This document shows positions 26,901-37,682 of a DNA stretch of 64,000 bases, piece after piece. Made by a program: the position numbers and the translations under genes. The first letter of the stretch is position 1. Each line of letters starts with the position of its first letter. Source of the DNA: an uncultured Nitrosomonas sp. (GTDB lineage Bacteria; Pseudomonadota; Gammaproteobacteria; Burkholderiales; Nitrosomonadaceae); the NCBI GenBank assembly GCA_949281375.1, contig CASDLT010000010.1, positions 119,182-183,181 of the forward strand, in the 5' to 3' direction. Below the pieces are notes generated by a model that saw nothing but the letters and a program-made list of their open reading frames with translations, did not search any database and was not told the DNA's origin.

Positions 26901-28160
26901 ATGTATAAAAATAATTTGCTTATTTACTTATTCGGAATCCTGCTTCTTACAACCATCTATAGCACGACAGCCCCAGCCCAATCGACGCCAAAAACCGACA
27001 ATTCAGCGTCAGCAGATACCGAATGCCTATTCAATTGGGCTCAAACATTCTATCCACAGCTTTTTTCACCAGCGATTATGGGCCTGCAACAATCTTCCCC
27101 CTATCTCTATCGCTATTACGCTACGACAAATGCCTATCTGGGAGTTTCAACGACCGACAATCATGTCTATTATCTGGAGACCAACCAGACAGTACCGAAG
27201 GACATGGGAGACATCTCATCTCTGATGAAAGAAGCAGGATGTGGCGTCAAGCCCTACCCGGTGATTTTCATCCACGGACTGGCTTCTTCTTCTGATACCT
27301 GGATCGCTTATAGAGATTACCTGATCGCGAACGGTGGCTGGATTTATGGCGGAATACCTGCATATGATCCCGCCACAAAAACAGTTAATCTCAACTGTCC
27401 GACAAATTCAGCCCAGGTTGTTCCGTGTACTGGCAAAAACGGAAATTTTTACACGATCAATTTCTCAAGCAATCAGCAATTATCACTTGACCTTCTGGGC
27501 GGCGAGATCGCGGCCGCCATACAAGCAGTGTTAAAGGCCAATCCAGGCTCGACCAAGGTTCTGCTGATCGGCCACAGCTCGGGAGGACTTGCTGCCAGAG
27601 CTTACTTACAGGGAATGGCGCGAGCACCAGACGTCACGACTCCGCTTGCTTATCGCGATGATGTTTTTAGGCTGATTACAATTGGCACTCCCCATCTTGG
27701 CAGTTTCTGGGCAGAGGCATGCCATACCCGCTTCGATCTTTTCAATCTCATCGACGATATCGGGATTTGCGATCTTCTGGCGTCGGACATCGACAATGAC
27801 AGTGCCGCGATTCAAGATCTGCAACCTGATAGCAATGTTTTGGCTGCGCTTAACGATCTTAATACACACCCTTTGCCCGCAAATGTCTCATATGTTTCGA
27901 TCATAGGTACCGGACAGCCCACCTTGTCCAGTTTAGTCGATTTTGACTCTGGAGACGGAATCGTAACGAATGCCTCTCAAAATCTTTCCACGTTGACAGG
28001 AAACCTCCCTCTTCAACAAAAATCAGTCGCCATTGAGGTTCCTTTCAAAGAGTGTGGCAATAGAATCAGTCTGCCATTGCTCGATGATATTGGCCAGGCT
28101 CACACGTGCGAAACGAGCGATTCGAATATCGGCGCGGAGATTTTGAAAAATTTACAGTAA
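26901..28160 (+). CDS. Secreted alpha/beta hydrolase (lipase/PGAP1-like) with extra N-terminal domain
   Basis: Signal peptide, 'IFIHGLAS', nucleophile elbow GHSSGG, 'TIGTPHLGS' and 'GDGIV'. Confidence 0.8.
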   Translation: MYKNNLLIYLFGILLLTTIYSTTAPAQSTPKTDNSASADTECLFNWAQTFYPQLFSPAIMGLQQSSPYLYRYYATTNAYLGVSTTDNHVYYLETNQTVPKDMGDISSLMKEAGCGVKPYPVIFIHGLASSSDTWIAYRDYLIANGGWIYGGIPAYDPATKTVNLNCPTNSAQVVPCTGKNGNFYTINFSSNQQLSLDLLGGEIAAAIQAVLKANPGSTKVLLIGHSSGGLAARAYLQGMARAPDVTTPLAYRDDVFRLITIGTPHLGSFWAEACHTRFDLFNLIDDIGICDLLASDIDNDSAAIQDLQPDSNVLAALNDLNTHPLPANVSYVSIIGTGQPTLSSLVDFDSGDGIVTNASQNLSTLTGNLPLQQKSVAIEVPFKECGNRISLPLLDDIGQAHTCETSDSNIGAEILKNLQ

Positions 28161-28364
28161 ATCGAGAACTGATGAATACTCTCGCATCGCTTAAGAACCA
28201 AATAATTGAACTTCTTTGCATTTACAACAACTTTTTGGTAATTCTGAGCGATATTCAACATTTACCCTAATGAAGGCTTGGTGTGAAACCATACCGACGA
28301 ATGGTTTTTACTATCCGATAATGACACTCCTTGCCAAGCATCAGGGCGAATTTGAGCGGAGCAG

Positions 28365-28568
28365 ATGATGTTAAAAAAGGTACAAATCAGCGACAGGAAC
28401 TCGGGCAGGATTATCGCAGAGTACCCGATTGTATTAGAAATACTGGGCGTTTCCCCAATGGATTATTGCAAAGAAGCCTGGGAAAACGCGATTGATGAAG
28501 GAGTCGTCGATCCGACCAGAACCGCACGGTACGAAGTAGAAGTTGTGAATGACATATGGGATAAATAG
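28365..28568 (+). CDS. Hypothetical protein (67 aa)
   Basis: GGAG RBS and protein-like composition; no family recognised. Confidence 0.55.
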   Translation: MMLKKVQISDRNSGRIIAEYPIVLEILGVSPMDYCKEAWENAIDEGVVDPTRTARYEVEVVNDIWDK

Positions 28569-28581
28569 AGAGAAAAAATAA

Positions 28582-28746
28582 ATGTCAAAATTAAAATTAA
28601 AATTAAACAATAGAAAAATCACCGATACGGCCATTGTGAGTCCAAAAGTAAGAAAAAAAATGCGTACTAAACGTTATTTAATGGCTGTCATGGATTTTAT
28701 GAAAAAAGAAAGACCCTCGTTTGTACCTCCAGAATCTATTTCCTGA
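28582..28746 (+). CDS. Small basic hypothetical protein (54 aa)
   Basis: MSKLKLKLNNRKITDTAIVSPKVRKKMRTKRYLMAVMDFMKKERPSFVPPESIS*, starting 13 nt after the previous stop. Confidence 0.35.
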   Translation: MSKLKLKLNNRKITDTAIVSPKVRKKMRTKRYLMAVMDFMKKERPSFVPPESIS

Positions 28747-29378
28747 TAAAGATGAGGCGCCTGCATTAAAAAAAGACACGATCAACTCTTCGTGTCTTAT
28801 CGGTCGCCTGTCTGCATCAGTTTCAAGTACTTAATGCAATGATCACCCCCCACGAGGCAACATTTTTATAGAATTTCTGCTTCATAAGTACGCGCACACA
28901 CGCAGATAACTCCTCAAGCTCTTCGGGTTTCTTGATCGACTCTAATCTTCATTCATTCCCTACAGAATGACGGATGATTTTGTTGTCCCTTTCTGATCAG
29001 CTTTTTTAAAGCTCATTCTATGTCCCCTAACAATCCAGGTAAGAATCCTCAGTCCGTCAAGGTGGACTATTCAAGAATTCCGCATTTCATATTCCAAGGC
29101 GGCGATATTTTCCGGCTCAACAATGATATTCCCGACCAGCCCAATTGACATTCCCGAACGCTCCAATGATTCAACTTAAACGTCACGATCATATTCAATT
29201 TCCATCATCCAGCCAGCAGCTCATTACGGTAAACAAAAATTGATGGATGGAGAAAAGCAAAAGATTGTGCGAGAACGATCGTTTTACTTTCCTTGATCGC
29301 TTGGATAAAATGCTGAAAAATGTTTAGAAGGCGCTTGCAACCTAGCGCTTATGCGCATGTTTATCAGGAGACCCAGTC

Positions 29379-29939
29379 ATGACCCACTCAAATAATGACG
29401 ACCTCATTAATGGAATTGATCCAAAACGGACACAGGCCATAGTGGATCTCATCAGAAATGACACTACAAGTGATAGCGCAAAACCTGAGTTTCGAACCAC
29501 AGTTGCATGGGATAGCGGCTATCACGCCACTATGCGCGTCACAGATGGCCAAGTCGTGCTCGCCGATGAGCCTCAGCGTTTTGGGGGCGAAGGAATGGGA
29601 ATCACGCCAGAGGATTTGTTGCTGACTGCGGTTGGTGCTTGCCTCGTGGCGACTTATATTGGAGGATTATCCGCAGCCTCCATCAATGTCGAACATCTGC
29701 GCTTAAGTGTGTCAGGGCGGGTTAATTTCCGCGCAGCTTTTGCCATCGAACCTGGCTCTCCGGGCTTCGAAGACATCAAAGTCGTGGTGGATTTACAAAC
29801 AGATGCTCCGGAACAAGAAGTGATCGAATTGCTCGAAAAACTGAACAAAGCCGCGCCCATACCCGATACCATCATGCGACCAGTACCCGTCAATGTAGAA
29901 ATCATCCATCATTCCGAAGTAAAAGCATCTTCACCTTGA
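29379..29939 (+). CDS. OsmC/Ohr-like protein
   Basis: Motifs 'ADEPQRFGGEGMGITPEDLLLTAVGAC' and 'PGFEDIKVVV'; second Cys absent. Confidence 0.85.
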   Translation: MTHSNNDDLINGIDPKRTQAIVDLIRNDTTSDSAKPEFRTTVAWDSGYHATMRVTDGQVVLADEPQRFGGEGMGITPEDLLLTAVGACLVATYIGGLSAASINVEHLRLSVSGRVNFRAAFAIEPGSPGFEDIKVVVDLQTDAPEQEVIELLEKLNKAAPIPDTIMRPVPVNVEIIHHSEVKASSP

Positions 29940-30064
29940 TCACTTCTTAATCTCGAATTTTCACTCTTGTTTACCAACAGAGTATCTGCTTGATTGAAAT
30001 TAAATCCAACGGGTTATTGCTCAATAGCCATTAGGACGAAGATGCTTACACTTAAGGATGATCT

Positions 30065-31252
30065 ATGAACAATCCTGATATTCATGATGTGACGGTAATT
30101 GGCGCAGGTCCCGCCGGGTTATCAGTTGCCTACGAGCTAGTAAGATCGGGTTTAAAACCCCTGGTATTGGAACGCACTGGCGCTGTCGGCGATGTCTGGC
30201 GCAATCATTATGATGGTGTACGATTGAATTCCGGACGCTATTTTTCTGCCCTGTCAGGCAGTAAATTTCCGTTATCTGCTGGCTCATGGCCTTCCCGCGA
30301 AGAAGTGGTTCGTCTGCTGGAAACTTTCCCGGCACGCGGCGGATTTACCGTACAAACAAACACCGATATCGAGAAAGTAAGTTATGACCGGCAACGTGAT
30401 GTCTGGCACATCATCAGCACCGAAGGCAAGCAATTCGAGTCTCGCGCCGTTGTCATGGCCATCGGAGGCTGCCGTATTCCAGTGATTCCCGACTGGGAAG
30501 GCTTGAGAACCTTCCCGGGAGAAATTATTCATTCATCGAAATTCAAGAACACTCAGGCATATACTGGCAAGCAGGTTTTAGTCGTCGGCAGCGGCAATTC
30601 TGCTGCTGAAATTGCCAGCAGGTTGGCCGGGCATGCAAGCTCCGTAACGGTGTCGGTCAGGACGGCGCCCCATATTCTGCCAAAGAGCATTTATGGCATC
30701 CCGTTGATCGGCATTGGGGTATGGACCCGATACTGGCCTACCCGCTGGGTGGATGGCATATTACGTTTTTTACAGCACCGTATGATAGGAGATCTGAGTG
30801 CCCACGGCCTGCCTTATCCTTCTTTGCCACTTTCAAAGCAGTACGCCATCAACAACGTAGTACCCATTCTTTATCGACCTTTCATCGATGACGTCCGCGC
30901 CGGGCGAATTCACATCGTAGGCCCAATCCAGAAGATCACCGGAAAAACCGTGGAGGTATTTCAACGCATCCAAACTGCGCAACATAATGACACTGACGTG
31001 GTAACGCTGGAACCTGATGTCATCATCGTTGGCACCGGTTTTCGTACCGGCATCTCGAAACTGGTTAAAATTCCAGGCATCACCGACAAGGATGATCGGG
31101 TGGTTTTCTCGGGGGATCAGGAACATCCCAATGCGCCACGGCTCTACTTCATCGGACAGATCAATCCGTTAAGCGGATTATTGCGGGAAATCCGACTGGA
31201 AGCCGGCAGAATTGCACAAAAACTCAAGCAACACATTCAAACAAACCGGTAA
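30065..31252 (+). CDS. Flavin-containing monooxygenase (class B, FMO/YUCCA-like)
   Basis: GAGPAG (FAD), FPGEIIHSSKF (FMO fingerprint), GSGNSA (NADPH) and 'GTGF'. Confidence 0.9.
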   Translation: MNNPDIHDVTVIGAGPAGLSVAYELVRSGLKPLVLERTGAVGDVWRNHYDGVRLNSGRYFSALSGSKFPLSAGSWPSREEVVRLLETFPARGGFTVQTNTDIEKVSYDRQRDVWHIISTEGKQFESRAVVMAIGGCRIPVIPDWEGLRTFPGEIIHSSKFKNTQAYTGKQVLVVGSGNSAAEIASRLAGHASSVTVSVRTAPHILPKSIYGIPLIGIGVWTRYWPTRWVDGILRFLQHRMIGDLSAHGLPYPSLPLSKQYAINNVVPILYRPFIDDVRAGRIHIVGPIQKITGKTVEVFQRIQTAQHNDTDVVTLEPDVIIVGTGFRTGISKLVKIPGITDKDDRVVFSGDQEHPNAPRLYFIGQINPLSGLLREIRLEAGRIAQKLKQHIQTNR

Positions 31253-31885
31253 TGCAGGGTTTACCCAAGAAAAATCCGCTCAAGGAAAGCAGTCAGAAAA
31301 GATTGCTTCAAGCCGCTTGCGGTTTATTTATTTTGCAAAGAAGGCATTCATGCCACGGGAATTGCCAGAATCATCGAAGCATCAGGTGTTTCGCGCCGCG
31401 CGTTATATCTACATTACGGTTCAAAAGAAAACTTGCTCAGAGCAGTCTTTGAAGCCGAAGCCGATATGTGGTTCCAGTGGTTTGACACTGATTTAGCGGC
31501 GCTGAACTGCCCGGCCCGCGATCGTATTCTGGCGTTATTCGATGTAATGCGCAATTGGTTTGAGAGCGAGCATTTCTATGGCTGCATATTTATCAACGCT
31601 GTTGCTGAATATGATAAGGGCAACAGTTAGGTACAAGGCATTGCTATTACCCATCGGGAAAAAATCAATGCCAAACTCCGCACGATGGTCGAGGCTAGCG
31701 TCATACAAGATCCGGACATGGTAACGGAAGAATTAAGCCTATTAATCGACGGCGCGATCATAACCGCGATGGTAACGAGCCAGGGCGATATTGCTCATAT
31801 CGCAAGGTTGGTCGCAGAAGACATTTACGCAGCGCTTCTACTCACAAAGGAGACAAAGAATCTTGAATTGGCCGCTTTTGATTGA
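31252..31885 (+). pseudogene. TetR-family regulator, frameshifted and nonsense-interrupted
   Basis: TTTA duplication at 31323-31330; removing it restores 'GLFCKEGIHATGIARIIEASGVSRRALYLHYGSKENL'. In-frame TAG at 31628-31630, after which the frame continues to 31885. Confidence 0.9.
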
Positions 31886-32804
31886 CGAAAAAACACCCGA
31901 ACCCGTGCGGGCAATCTTACGAGGCGCAGGACAAGTCATGTTTTGTGGCAATGCCGTTACTGGATTTTTTGTCTTGATCGGGTTCTATGTGAGCGGAATA
32001 ATGACTGGAATAGCAGCGACGATAGGGTTAATTTGCAGTACTCTCACCGCGCATGCGTTCAAGTTTTGCTTGCAGGATATCAAAGCTGGACTTTACGGAT
32101 TCAACGGTATTCTGGTTGCGGTCTGCCTGTCTGTCTTCATGGGTCACACACCGCAGTTATGGCTCTACATTGTCATCGCGTCGATACTGTCTAGCATCGT
32201 CTGGGCGATGATGACTCGTCTTCTTCATATCTGCCGCCTTCCCGCGGCAACCTCATCTTTTGTGCTGATTAGTTGGATATTCTTGCTGATGATGCATGCT
32301 TCAGGCAATCAACCACCAGCGCCAATCATATCTATCACAGCACAGATCGGAGCCATTCCCATTGAAACATGGCTGACCGCCATGATGCGCGCCATCAGTC
32401 AGATTCTCTTCAGTGACGATGTACTGGTCGGAGGATTACTGCTGTCAGGAATTGCATTAGTTTCATGGCGAGGCGCTTACATGGCCATCGCCGGTGCGCT
32501 GATTGGTGTGGCATTGCCACTTGGCATGGGAATTGACCAGAAAGCTATCGAGGCAGGCTTGTATGGATTCAATCCGGTTTTGACAATGATTGCAGTAGGA
32601 TGGGTTTTTCTTGAATCCACTCCTCAAACAACTGTTCTGGCAGTAATCGCCGGGATATTGGCAGTGATCTGGCAGGTTGTGCTGTCCAGCTTACTGATGC
32701 CCATCGGGATACCGGTACTGGCTTCACCGTTTATTTTTACGCTATGGATGGTTTTGTTTGCGATCAATAAATTTAGATCCGGCGTCTCTGTGGCTCCAAG
32801 TTAG
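31863..32804 (+). CDS. Urea transporter (UT/Utp family)
   Basis: 'LRGAGQVMF', duplicated GLYGFNG/GLYGFNP motifs, about 10 TM. TTG start with AAGGAG 10 nt upstream. Confidence 0.9.
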   Translation: MNWPLLIDEKTPEPVRAILRGAGQVMFCGNAVTGFFVLIGFYVSGIMTGIAATIGLICSTLTAHAFKFCLQDIKAGLYGFNGILVAVCLSVFMGHTPQLWLYIVIASILSSIVWAMMTRLLHICRLPAATSSFVLISWIFLLMMHASGNQPPAPIISITAQIGAIPIETWLTAMMRAISQILFSDDVLVGGLLLSGIALVSWRGAYMAIAGALIGVALPLGMGIDQKAIEAGLYGFNPVLTMIAVGWVFLESTPQTTVLAVIAGILAVIWQVVLSSLLMPIGIPVLASPFIFTLWMVLFAINKFRSGVSVAPS

Positions 32805-32911
32805 ACCTCAGCAGGATTTTCAATTGAATGGAGTCCCATAGTTGATAACGCTCAATTCATATGGGAAAGAAAATATCCTTTCCCATGAATATTTATTCAA
32901 CCCATTCATAT

Positions 32912-33283
32912 TTATGAGTTTTTATGGCTTTGCCTTCCTGCTCGGGCGTGATCCTCGGAAGAACCACCCCGGGTATGTGACGAGGAATCGCCACTGCGTC
33001 CGGAACTTGATTTTGATCCACTGCGACCGCCGGAATCTTCATCATCCTGGGTAGATCGCGAACCGCTGTCGCTTCTGTTGCCCGAACTTGAAGCGCTGTG
33101 CGATCTGCTTTGCCCACCTTTTTGGCCAGCTTCTCGAGCTTCCTCCGAATCAAACTCATGCGCGGTGCCTTTTTCATGGGCAGCGCGTCCGCCTTTTGAG
33201 GCAATTTCACGCTGTTTATCTTCATCCATTGAGGCAAATCCTCTATTACTCGTATTACCTTGATTACTTTTTGAAGTAGTCAT
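32912..33283 (-). CDS. KGG-repeat general stress protein (YciG/GsiB-like)
   Basis: 'GFASMDEDKQREIASKGG' and 'EAREAGQKGG'; hydrophilic Ser/Gly-rich. Confidence 0.9.
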   Translation of the reverse strand: MTTSKSNQGNTSNRGFASMDEDKQREIASKGGRAAHEKGTAHEFDSEEAREAGQKGGQSRSHSASSSGNRSDSGSRSTQDDEDSGGRSGSKSSSGRSGDSSSHTRGGSSEDHARAGRQSHKNS

Positions 33284-33500
33284 CTTAAAATCTCCAGTAA
33301 ATTAAAAATGATCCTATGTGATCTCAATGATCACTTTCAATGTACTGGAGTTATTTATGATGGTATGTACGCTTTCTAACTTAATGTTAGAAAAGATGTT
33401 ATAGAGCCGAATCGAATGAAAATTCCATCAAGTGAGCGAATTCTGAAAATCACCGCGCTTTTTTACACGCCATTTCATGTGCCTGTTTGTCGTCCATTAT

Positions 33501-35373: not shown

Positions 35374-36666
35374 TTGCTGACCGAAATTATGAATGCTCCT
35401 TTTTTAAATGATCTACGCACATCTTATTCTTTGATAGAGCGCTTCCGGTCAGTCCGCATGCAGACAATGGCACTGTGCACACCATTGGAAACGGAAGATT
35501 ATGTCGTTTCAAGCATGGTCGATGTCAGCCCCACGAAATGGCATTTAGCCCATACCACGTGGTTTTTCGAGACCTTTATCATAAAACCTTATCTACCATC
35601 GTATCAAACATTCGACTCTCGCTATGCCTTTCTTTTCAATTCTTATTATGAACAGGCTGGCGCACGTCAGTGCAGATCGCTTCGCGGCTTGGCAACACGC
35701 CCGACCGTCACCGAGGTATTTACATATCGCAGTTATGTCGATGAAGCCGTTGAAAACTTGTTTGACAAGATTGACGATGATTGCCAGCACCCGGCCTGGC
35801 GAAAGTTGGAAATGGGACTGCATCACGAACAACAACATCAAGAATTACTACTGACCGATATCAAACATGTGCTCTGGACAAATCCATTGCGCCCAACCTA
35901 TCGCAACGACAGCGCGTCATCGCTGCATACAGCGTTTCAACGGCAGAGATGGGAGCCAATTGAAGAAGGCCTTTATATCATTGGCAATGCCGAAGATCAG
36001 TTCACATTTGATAACGAGCGGCCAGCACACAAAACCTATTTGCAGTCCGCAAAATTATCGCACTCGTTGGTCACTAATGCGGAATATTCAGCTTTCATCG
36101 CCGATGGGGGCTATCAAACCCCAGGATTGTGGCTGAGCGATGGGTGGAGAATGGTGCAATCAGAGCAATTGCGAGCACCTCTCTATTGGGAGCAGTACAA
36201 TGGCCAATGGCATGAATTTACCTTGCACGGTGAACTGCCCTTGTCTCCCACTGTACCCGTGTGCCACATCAGTTATTATGAAGCCGATGCATTTGCACGC
36301 TGGGCGGGGTATCGATTGCCGACAGAAGCGGAATGGGAAATCGTCGCAAATAGACATTCCACGCAACAAATTAACCTACAACAAATCAGTTTTCATCCCT
36401 CTCCCGCAAGTGATGATAATCATATTCAGCAATTGTTCGGCCAGGTTTGGCAATGGACACAGAGTCCTTACATAGCCTATCCGGGATTTTATCCCTCATG
36501 CGACGTACTGGGCGAATACAACGGCAAGTTCATGTGTGATCAATGGGTTCTGCGCGGTTCCTCCTGCCTCACGCCCCCCGGCCATACCCGCACGACGTAT
36601 CGGAATTTCTTCCCGAGTGATGCCCGCTGGCAATTCACTGGCCTTCGTTTGGCGGCCGATGGATGA
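35374..36666 (+). CDS. egtB: Ergothioneine sulfoxide synthase
   Basis: DinB_2 motif 'WHLAHTTWFFETF', iron motif 'HHEQQHQE', FGE-sulfatase domain, 'EYNGKFM'. Start may be ATG 35389. Confidence 0.92.
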   Translation: MLTEIMNAPFLNDLRTSYSLIERFRSVRMQTMALCTPLETEDYVVSSMVDVSPTKWHLAHTTWFFETFIIKPYLPSYQTFDSRYAFLFNSYYEQAGARQCRSLRGLATRPTVTEVFTYRSYVDEAVENLFDKIDDDCQHPAWRKLEMGLHHEQQHQELLLTDIKHVLWTNPLRPTYRNDSASSLHTAFQRQRWEPIEEGLYIIGNAEDQFTFDNERPAHKTYLQSAKLSHSLVTNAEYSAFIADGGYQTPGLWLSDGWRMVQSEQLRAPLYWEQYNGQWHEFTLHGELPLSPTVPVCHISYYEADAFARWAGYRLPTEAEWEIVANRHSTQQINLQQISFHPSPASDDNHIQQLFGQVWQWTQSPYIAYPGFYPSCDVLGEYNGKFMCDQWVLRGSSCLTPPGHTRTTYRNFFPSDARWQFTGLRLAADG

Positions 36667-37682
36667 ACAATACGCTGCTTCATTCCAACGGTATGCAGAT
36701 TGAGTTCGCTTCTTCATCATTGCCTAATTCATTGCAAGCAGCCGCGATCACCGGGCTTGAAAACAAATGCAAAACGCTTCCTTCCGCCCTTTTCTACGAC
36801 GCAACCGGAGCCCGCCTGTTCGAGGAAATCTGCAAATTGCCCGAGTATTATCCTACCCGCACTGAATCAACGATACTGCGTGACTATGCACCCCTACTCG
36901 CTTCCCATATTGGAACAGATGCGGTCTTGATTGACTATGGCAGTGGCTCAGGAGAAAAGGCGCAATTCCTTCTGGACTATTTACCATCCTTGAACGCCTA
37001 TGTTCCTGTTGATGTTTCACGTGAACAACTCATGCAAGTCGCTGCTGAGCGATCTGCTCAATATCCGCTTCTGCAAGTCCTGCCAATCTGTGCAGACTAC
37101 ACCGAACCGTTAGAATTTCCCAATTTACCGGATGGAGCGCGTTATATCGCCTTCTTTCCGGGATCAACTATCGGCAATTTTCATCCTTCTGATGCAGTGA
37201 CGTTTCTGACTCAGATTCGAAGTACCATCATGCCGGAAGGAAAATTAATCCTCGGTGTTGATCGCCGCAAACATCCGGATTTATTGCACGCTGCCTACAA
37301 TGACAAACTAGGGCTTACCGCCGCGTTTAATCTCAATATTCTGAGGCATCTCAATCGTGAAATGAATGCTAGTTTCAATCTATCGCATTTTCGTCATTTG
37401 GCATTTTTCAATGAGCAAACCAGCCGTATCGAAATGCATCTAGAATCGTTAGTCGCTCACCAGGCCACGATTAACGACAAATTGATTCAATTCGACGCCG
37501 GTGAAACCATCCGTACAGAATGCTCATATAAATATGATGAAGAAAGCCTGAGCACACTGGCAGAAGCGAGCGGATTTGAGATCGAAGAACTGTACACCGA
37601 TAGTCGCCAATGGTTCTGGATCGCATTATTGAGCCCATCTTCATCTTCGAATCAATATTGTCAAGAAACAACTTCGTTCTGA
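36663..37682 (+). CDS. egtD: L-histidine N(alpha)-methyltransferase
   Basis: Motifs 'LFEEICKLPEYYPTRTE', 'FFPGSTIGNF', 'AAYND' and 'TECSYKY'; ATGA overlap with egtB. Confidence 0.95.
   Translation: MNNTLLHSNGMQIEFASSSLPNSLQAAAITGLENKCKTLPSALFYDATGARLFEEICKLPEYYPTRTESTILRDYAPLLASHIGTDAVLIDYGSGSGEKAQFLLDYLPSLNAYVPVDVSREQLMQVAAERSAQYPLLQVLPICADYTEPLEFPNLPDGARYIAFFPGSTIGNFHPSDAVTFLTQIRSTIMPEGKLILGVDRRKHPDLLHAAYNDKLGLTAAFNLNILRHLNREMNASFNLSHFRHLAFFNEQTSRIEMHLESLVAHQATINDKLIQFDAGETIRTECSYKYDEESLSTLAEASGFEIEELYTDSRQWFWIALLSPSSSSNQYCQETTSF

Follow-up and report, generated by a model that had tools for sequence, protein, structure and literature searches.

The plus-strand locus at positions 29379 to 32804 of a 64,000-nt window from an uncultured Nitrosomonas sp. 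(the window being the whole stretch of DNA analyzed, to which all coordinates given here refer) contains four genes in the order OsmC-like protein, flavin-containing monooxygenase (FMO)-like protein, TetR-like reading frame, and urea transporter (UT)-family channel. We read this locus, with a probability of about 0.5, as a TetR-controlled accessory cassette that would oxygenate a small solute taken up from outside the cell. An earlier note on this DNA, made from the sequence alone, had given the same families in the same order and spacing, including the 125 nt between osmC and the FMO gene (29939 to 30065) and the overlap of the FMO stop codon with the tetR start codon as TAATG at 31250 to 31254, and these coordinates hold. 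The note had gone on to propose an uptake and oxidation system for thiourea-type nitrification inhibitors or other small amides. A coupled uptake-and-oxidation unit is backed by comparative genomics because the four genes co-occur, a UT paralogue is exclusive to the FMO cassette, and the OsmC-FMO pair with its operator is elsewhere joined to an ABC importer; thiourea-type inhibitors or small amides as the substrates of this unit find no direct support.

The closest named relatives of the encoded proteins belong to Nitrosomonas sp. JL21, Nitrosomonas sp. Nm84, and N. ureae. A scan of species-representative genomes for FMO genes of at least 60% identity recovered 54 loci of the type found in ammonia-oxidizing bacteria (AOB), including loci of N. 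europaea, N. eutropha, N. halophila, N. nitrosa, N. mobilis, Nitrosospira, and Nitrosovibrio. Where the arrangement could be judged, tetR follows the FMO gene in 52 of 52 loci, osmC precedes it in 48 of 51, and a UT gene follows tetR in 22 of 49. The search for neighborhood conservation suggested by the earlier note thus finds all four genes together in many ammonia oxidizers, and the objection that such co-occurrence is absent elsewhere fails. An evenly drawn sample of 81 Nitrosomonadaceae genomes shows a patchy distribution of the cassette; the sample includes the unpublished genome G103, which is FMO negative, holds a UT fragment only, and bears on none of the conclusions. An FMO orthologue is present in 29 of the 81 genomes, which comprise the window genome and 15 of 31 relatives in its genus as well as 13 of 31 members of a second genus, and is present in none from two further genera. 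These 29 FMO-positive genomes include 13 with a variant UT of the kind described below, 3 with an SsuA-like binding protein of an ABC importer, and 13 with neither. The 52 FMO-negative genomes have no variant UT and no binding protein, and many of them have a canonical UT. The full-length low-scoring UTs were all found in FMO-positive genomes, of which 13 have them. Among the 14 variant UTs outside the window, 13 were placed next to the FMO gene, either from their coordinates or from tblastn searches of fetched loci; for the 14th, on a short contig, no judgment was possible, and one further copy, in genome G086, is unlinked. The co-occurrence of the UT with the FMO cassette is far beyond chance. 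One metagenome-assembled genome (MAG) contig labeled Kiritimatiellales, which has Nitrosomonas-like genes, carries a 1.5-kb insertion between the FMO gene and tetR (L021:7185-8727); the insertion probably represents a mobile element, in a contig that was probably mis-binned.

Beyond the ammonia oxidizers, the OsmC-FMO pair is associated with a different transporter. Homologues of the FMO with 45 to 52% identity were found in Pseudomonas helleri, P. palmensis, Providencia burhodogranariea, Pandoraea, Advenella, a Rhizobiaceae MAG, and Burkholderiales and alphaproteobacterial MAGs, each of them encoded directly after an OsmC-like gene. In all 11 of these non-AOB loci, osmC-FMO is immediately preceded by the genes of a NitT/TauT-type importer (SsuA-like binding protein, permease, and ATPase), and tetR stands in front of the importer genes in 8 of the 11. 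The same importer is present in a few ammonia oxidizers: a Nitrosomonas MAG (L026) has the order importer, osmC, FMO, and tetR, while N. europaea encodes, at a separate locus, an importer that is 58 to 66% identical to that of P. helleri. The 3 of 81 Nitrosomonadaceae genomes with the binding protein are all FMO positive, and none of them has the variant UT. The best reading of these sequences is that the variant UT would serve as an alternative to the ABC importer. The search for a solved relative of the binding protein gave a weak match to an uncharacterized protein (3qsl). Comparison of the surroundings of the cassette in Pandoraea, Advenella, and a Nitrosomonas MAG revealed no further conserved partner genes in common. 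In a single instance, in Pandoraea (L075:215-1546), a gene for an Amt ammonium transporter lies directly upstream of the tetR-importer-osmC-FMO array.

The UT gene of the window (31863 to 32804, plus strand) encodes a protein of 313 aa. Its start is likely the TTG at 31863, which is preceded by AGGAG at 31848 to 31852 and conserved in two relatives, and not the TTG at 31791 of the open reading frame (ORF) list. Membership in the UT family is supported by a Pfam score of 245 bits (PF03253; cut-off, 25 bits) over profile positions 1 to 290 of 292, and the score on the Yut-type urea transporter equivalog model TIGR03441 (257.2 bits) lies below its cut-off of 274.6 bits. Like the canonical urea channel dvUT (3k3f and 3me1) and the urease-linked UTs, the window protein has the full-length UT fold with both pseudo-repeats (PF03253, residues 15 to 300), and it aligns with dvUT over residues 16 to 308. 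Unlike the canonical proteins, it scores about 60 bits lower on the Pfam model and adjoins the FMO cassette instead of urease. The canonical UT of the same genome scores 305 bits and is encoded on another contig, approximately 3.5 kb downstream of a urease alpha-subunit match. Pfam scores of UTs are bimodal across the Nitrosomonadaceae, with canonical copies at approximately 295 to 317 bits versus 237 to 263 bits for the linked copies. The maximum likelihood tree places the canonical, urease-linked UTs in one clade (100/98), and the FMO-linked copies fall outside this clade on long branches. A search for the variant UT outside the ammonia oxidizers found that, among its best 120 relatives, the named sequences all come from Nitrosomonas, Nitrosospira, or an unclassified proteobacterial MAG, most of the relatives carrying no name.

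The linked clade differs from the canonical one in the pore. The residues of dvUT that contact urea are Q24, V25, F27, F80, L84, L129, T130, E187, V188, F190, F243, L247, L293, and T294 (PMC5311045). At 11 of these 14 positions, the linked and canonical UTs of ammonia oxidizers have the same residue. Glu187 of dvUT is replaced by Gln (Q180 in the window protein) and Thr294 by Ala (A287) in 22 of 22 FMO-linked UTs versus 0 of 30 canonical ones, all 30 of which retain both Glu187 and Thr294 (dvUT numbering). The position of dvUT L129 is fixed as Ala in the 22 linked UTs versus Ser in canonical UTs, and at residue 295 all linked UTs have Ser or Ala, where the canonical proteins have Phe. The window protein also has Ile at the position of V188, and the set of dvUT pore residues is not conserved in it. 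Ratios of nonsynonymous to synonymous substitution rates (dN/dS) against JL21, which are rough values with dS near saturation, are 0.17 for the UT gene, 0.08 for osmC, 0.09 for the FMO gene, and 0.07 to 0.08 for the neighboring genes. The UT evolves faster, at about twice the rate of its neighbors, yet it remains under purifying selection. The unlinked copy mentioned above (L124, at G086:C1:1459482-1460354) is the second UT of the variant type in its genome, shares 55% identity with the window UT, and is located away from the FMO cassette; G086 is a complete Nitrosomonas genome without a urease alpha match, and the tree places this UT with the linked clade. In N. ureae (loci L025 and L004 of strain Nm13, and locus L089), the linked UT is broken into two frames, and a second FMO copy elsewhere in the Nm13 genome has stop codons and adjoins an intact TetR homologue. 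Judging from the broken copies in N. ureae, decay of cassette parts recurs in other lineages.

A shared palindrome is found in front of the cassettes. In the window it reads GAGAACGATCGTTTTA (29271 to 29286, plus strand) and overlaps the −35 hexamer of a sigma-70-like promoter identified by a consensus scan (TTTACT-17 nt-TAAAAT, 29283 to 29311, plus strand). The element is a 16-nt palindrome-like sequence with the consensus TAGACNGATCNGTCTA, located 48 to 198 nt upstream of osmC and most commonly present as GAGAACGATCGGTCTAC, from which the window copy differs by two changes in the right half. It occurs with at most 4 mismatches in all 41 distinct AOB sequences upstream of osmC, a score that about 9% of random 250-mers also reach. 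The common form GAGAACGATCGGTCTAC lies 10 to 40 nt upstream of the binding-protein gene in Pseudomonas, Pandoraea, Rhizobiaceae, Providencia, an alphaproteobacterial MAG, and the Nitrosomonas MAG L026, and the operator is also present upstream of the separate importer locus of N. europaea. At a threshold of at most 1 mismatch, the element is rare genome-wide: four genomes have it, each at one to four places, and the window genome has none. We presume that the palindrome is a TetR-binding operator at a regulated promoter. A perfect 16-nt palindrome of this type, TAGACTGATCAGTCTA, occurs in N. europaea between a 222-aa ORF of unassigned family and a tandem universal stress protein gene (L134, at G115:C41:27179-27194), and this locus may be a third member of the regulon.

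Evidence of expression comes from the contigs of two activated-sludge metatranscriptome runs, in which contig depth serves as a crude measure. RNA contigs identical to the window start at 29330 and 29332, approximately 20 nt past the −10 hexamer. Their depth is 19 to 30 over osmC and the 5′ part of the FMO gene, and 4 to 8 over the 3′ part of the FMO gene and the tetR remnant. The depth is zero upstream of 29200, which speaks for RNA rather than DNA carry-over.

The tetR frame (31252 to 31885, plus strand) falls into three pieces and is a pseudogene, which the earlier note overlooked when it took TetR to be an intact gene. Alignment to the intact tetR genes of Nitrosomonas sp. JL21 and Nm84 mapped three lesions: a frame-shifting 4-nt tandem duplication, (TTTA)2, at 31323 to 31330; a nonsense change from TGG to TAG at 31628 to 31630; and a 1-nt deletion between 31824 and 31825. 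The mended translation has both the helix-turn-helix and the ligand domain of a TetR protein (TetR_N, 45.6 bits; TetR_C_13, 30 bits), and the window genome has no intact reading frame for it. These lesions are real and not assembly errors, because every sampled 31-mer of 30900 to 32100 recurs in 14 runs of DNA metagenomes (biofilm and activated sludge; at least 6 studies) and because independent DNA contigs from two of those studies span 29170 to 33400 with no indel and no change inside tetR. The same presence in metagenomes indicates that the strain is widespread. Because of the 1-nt deletion, the remnant frame extends across the UT start to 31885, and the overlap between the TetR end and the transporter start that had been described is an artifact of decay. 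Translational coupling through TetR does not hold either, since TetR is a pseudogene here and most relatives show 30 to 130 nt between the genes and not an overlap. In the sister lineage L132, the nearest relative found (FMO, 86% identical), the equivalent of 31288 to 31740 is deleted and the distance between the FMO and UT genes is 192 nt; two of the window lesions fall in this deleted stretch and are not comparable, and the 1-nt deletion is not shared. The (TTTA)2 duplication lengthens a T-rich run right after a small GC hairpin, AAGCCGCTTGCGGTTT, giving a terminator-like site in the pseudogene (31310 to 31335, plus strand), through which the RNA contigs read.

The FMO gene (30065 to 31252, plus strand) encodes a class B FMO-like protein of 395 aa (Pfam Pyr_redox_3, 108.6 bits; FMO-like, 64.1 bits). 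Its translation contains the motifs GAGPAG (residues 13 to 18), FPGEIIHSSKF (150 to 160), GSGNSA (175 to 180), and GTGFR (323 to 327), the positions of which vary little or not at all among 13 homologues with identities as low as 50%. The residues G13, G15, G18, G175, G177, and A181 are invariant among these homologues and mark two dinucleotide-binding motifs, GxGxxG for FAD near the N terminus and GxGxx(G/A) for NAD(P)H. The motif that identifies FMOs is FxGxxxHxxx(Y/F), and its Baeyer-Villiger form ends in W(P/D). In the window protein, FPGEIIHSSKF is followed by K, with G152, H156, and F160 invariant and F150 nearly so. The protein has no CxxC, and no Cys is conserved across the 13 homologues. 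An AlphaFold2 model (mean predicted local distance difference test score, 78.6) was used for a Foldseek search of the Protein Data Bank (PDB), in which 48 of the 50 top-ranked chains are FMOs, Baeyer-Villiger monooxygenases, or related monooxygenases and ranks 36 and 42 are a ferredoxin/flavodoxin-NADP+ reductase, with E values of 1e-27 to 3e-19 over all 50. The closest structures are DiatB (8z12), the Cellvibrio FMO (4usq), and SMFMO (4a9w), followed by the Janthinobacterium FMO and Baeyer-Villiger monooxygenases. The flavoprotein has the motifs and predicted fold of a class B monooxygenase of the FMO type. Membership in three more specific families was considered and rejected: ArsO (NF040505; 161.6 bits against a cut-off of 425, with a match spanning residues 7 to 212 only), the trimethylamine monooxygenase Tmm (NF058570; 64.4 bits against a cut-off of 675), and YpdA, for which the score was far under the cut-off.

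The most similar characterized enzymes are the short bacterial "type II" FMOs of Stenotrophomonas maltophilia (SMFMO, 4a9w), Cellvibrio sp. BR (4usq), and Pseudomonas stutzeri NF13 (4usr). These are likewise single-component class B flavoproteins of approximately 360 to 400 aa with two dinucleotide-binding motifs and the FxGxxxHxxx(Y/F) signature, and they match the window FMO with profile E values of 1e-34 to 5e-42 and query-normalized TM-scores of 0.64 to 0.68. They differ in that the identity is 22 to 26% and the sequence matches cover mainly the N-terminal half of the window protein, whose gene, unlike theirs, shares a conserved operon with genes for an OsmC-like protein, TetR, and an importer. 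The type II enzymes have been studied as biocatalysts for thioether and Baeyer-Villiger oxidation, and we know of no physiological partner genes for them. The best full-length match is the flavin-dependent monooxygenase DiatB (PDB 8z12 to 8z17), which aligns with residues 8 to 388 of the query (profile E value, 6e-40; Foldseek E value, 1e-27; TM-score, 0.75). Its identity to the window FMO is 26%, and the literature search gave no paper on DiatB, so that the DiatB reaction is not transferable to the window FMO.

The first gene of the cassette (29379 to 29939, plus strand) encodes an OsmC-like protein of 186 aa (PF02566, 56.5 bits) that scores under the cut-offs of all NCBIfam OsmC/Ohr models, including that for the OsmC-related (seleno)protein. 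Like the OsmC/Ohr organic hydroperoxide reductases, it has the OsmC domain and a conserved Cys at the peroxidatic position; this residue, Cys88, is its single conserved Cys and is retained in 48 of 49 homologues. Unlike in those enzymes, the resolving Cys is replaced by Ala. The invariant motif APIPDTIxRPVP (A159-P160 in the window protein) occupies what we take, from the family motif, to be the site of the second Cys. The protein therefore has the domain of the two-cysteine OsmC/Ohr class but not its pair of peroxidatic and resolving Cys residues. The nearest solved chain is a hypothetical protein (2opl).

In the explanation that we propose, one promoter overlapped by the palindromic operator would drive the osmC-like gene, the FMO gene, and tetR, together with a dedicated entry route in about half of the carriers. 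This route would be a neofunctionalized UT-family channel in many ammonia oxidizers and a NitT/TauT-type ABC importer in other proteobacteria and a few Nitrosomonas. In the cytoplasm, the NAD(P)H- and FAD-dependent class B monooxygenase would oxygenate the solute at a soft nucleophilic S, N, or Se atom. The one-cysteine OsmC-like protein may then handle the reactive oxygenated product, or else peroxide from uncoupled turnover, and TetR would be let go by the solute or its product. Loss of the repressor in the window lineage would leave the promoter constitutively open. Several observations weigh against this explanation. Uptake is not obligatory, as 13 of the 29 FMO-positive genomes have no dedicated importer, and the body of the UT gene (31800 to 32680) has no RNA contig in either run, so that co-expression of the UT is not visible in the window strain. 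The variant UT may also play a plain role in urea supply. Four carriers of the variant UT gave no urease alpha match and all four have a full-length urea-carboxylase-family gene, as does every variant-UT genome checked. The Gln at E187 alone is compatible with urea transport, because a vertebrate urea transporter isoform also has Gln at this position (PMC5311045). In addition, related genomes are not independent, and the co-occurrence counts overstate the number of events. The sequences do not name the substrate, and the literature search gave no biochemical datum or paper on any member of the cassette.

Three other explanations were weighed against the oxygenating cassette. One, which we consider unlikely, is a redox-stress pair in which the OsmC-like protein would be a thiol peroxidase and the flavoprotein its NAD(P)H reductase, comparable to AhpC/AhpF, with the transporters as co-regulated neighbors and the UT carrying urea. 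The OsmC fold does belong to hydroperoxide reductases, but the OsmC-like protein is without the resolving Cys; the flavoprotein weakly matches YpdA, TrxR, and AhpF models, but it carries the motif by which FMOs are identified, lacks both a redox-active Cys pair and any conserved Cys, and has only monooxygenases as its top structural matches. Genes for MsrB, a KGG-repeat stress protein, and EgtB and EgtD lie nearby, although this stress-gene neighborhood is retained only in the closest relative. The operator copy upstream of the universal stress protein gene of N. europaea and the urea-carboxylase-family genes of the variant-UT genomes also fit the redox pair. A peroxide system, however, needs neither of the two unrelated importer types that were recruited to the cassette and are exclusive to it. 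Rather improbable, too, is the explanation that the locus is a decaying accessory module on its way out in the window strain, with the UT and the cassette having no current role. It would account for the three tetR lesions, the two extra changes in the window operator, the long branch and roughly doubled rate of the UT, the missing RNA contig over the UT, and the broken copies elsewhere (the split UT and the second FMO copy with stops in N. ureae Nm13). Yet osmC, the FMO gene, and the UT gene are intact ORFs with dN/dS values on the side of constraint (0.08, 0.09, and 0.17), RNA contigs from both activated-sludge runs are identical to the window over osmC and the FMO gene, and the identical sequence persists in the metagenomes of at least 6 studies. 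Loss of the repressor in two sister lineages with the structural genes kept is, moreover, the outcome expected from selection for constitutive expression.

The remaining alternative is the thiourea-specific form of the uptake and oxidation idea, in which the channel would admit thiourea-type copper chelators and the FMO would S-oxygenate them in the cytoplasm, protecting ammonia monooxygenase. It fits that thioureas are substrates of class B FMOs, that some urea analogues pass through UT channels, and that ammonia oxidizers are very sensitive to thioureas. The mid-pore Thr hydroxyl and Glu carboxylate are gone in all 22 linked UTs, which would suit a larger, softer analogue, and a thiol protein beside an S-oxygenase would fit the handling of a sulfenic acid product. 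The nearest functional analogy would be EthA/EthR of Mycobacterium, in which a TetR-family regulator is likewise paired with a class B flavin monooxygenase. EthA/EthR is a TetR-controlled class B monooxygenase system that S-oxygenates thioamides and thioureas; EthA is longer and of the Baeyer-Villiger type, ethA and ethR are divergent, and neither an OsmC-like partner nor a dedicated importer accompanies them. The analogy is meant at the level of the enzyme class. The thiourea-specific explanation is coherent, but we rate it low, because the same regulon in the heterotrophs Pseudomonas, Providencia, Pandoraea, and Rhizobiaceae uses an ATP-driven importer, which looks like nutrient scavenging, and these organisms have no ammonia monooxygenase to protect. 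The restriction of the cassette to 29 of 81 Nitrosomonadaceae genomes also speaks against it, and no experimental link was found in the literature. A more elaborate version, to which we give similarly little credence, is that the UT clade was re-tuned (E187Q, T294A, and neighboring changes) to let through a urea analogue, for example thiourea or a thiocarbonyl or seleno compound related to it, and would act jointly with the FMO and the one-cysteine OsmC-like protein as an inducible "drain and destroy" system that lowers the periplasmic level of copper-chelating nitrification inhibitors.

The surroundings of the cassette contain further features. A stretch of approximately 1.1 kb (28160 to 29270) with low G+C and no ORF longer than 67 aa separates an alpha/beta hydrolase gene from the osmC promoter; its counterpart in JL21 is approximately 4 kb, and no RNA contig of the two metatranscriptome runs covers 28900 to 29200. 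Downstream, a terminator-like hairpin found by a consensus scan (32860 to 32887, plus strand; a 10-pair stem, then a T-rich tail) lies between the UT gene and the convergent gene for the KGG-repeat stress protein (32912 to 33283, minus strand), which stands far above the rest of the region in RNA contig depth (79 to 99 in the two activated-sludge RNA runs). Farther on, egtB (FGE-sulfatase and DinB_2 domains, 430 aa) and egtD (Methyltransf_33, 339 aa) form an ergothioneine synthesis pair with overlapping stop and start codons (35374 to 37682, plus strand). A functional link between this pair, 2.5 kb downstream, and the cassette was considered and rejected, the adjacency being found only in JL21 and L132 (egtB in L132) and at no other FMO loci; we read it as local synteny. 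Riboswitch control, by guanidine or otherwise, was also looked for, and Rfam gave nothing credible between 27000 and 35500 of the window and one tRNA as the sole family in seven importer loci.

A full-text literature search, which covered the gene combination, the FMO of Nitrosomonas, DiatB, and mutants of the UT pore, yielded the list of urea-contacting residues (PMC5311045) and found no publication on an osmC-FMO-tetR cassette with an importer or UT. Every part comes from a known family, and the combination is, as far as we could find, undescribed: a mobile, presumably TetR-controlled OsmC-like/FMO pair that appears to have recruited either an ABC importer or a re-tuned urea channel. The system is tractable because the operator is conserved, cultured relatives (N. 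europaea, JL21, and Nm84) have an intact TetR, and the enzyme is soluble. For UT selectivity, it offers a natural experiment, in which two pore substitutions are fixed in a paralogue found in the same cells as the canonical channel. For nitrification, the cassette is a candidate for what determines how cells deal with small urea-like or sulfur compounds, perhaps including inhibitors; it varies among strains, and its repressor has been lost in the widespread wastewater strain represented by the window. If the "drain and destroy" proposal were true, strains without TetR, such as this wastewater Nitrosomonas, would be constitutively tolerant.

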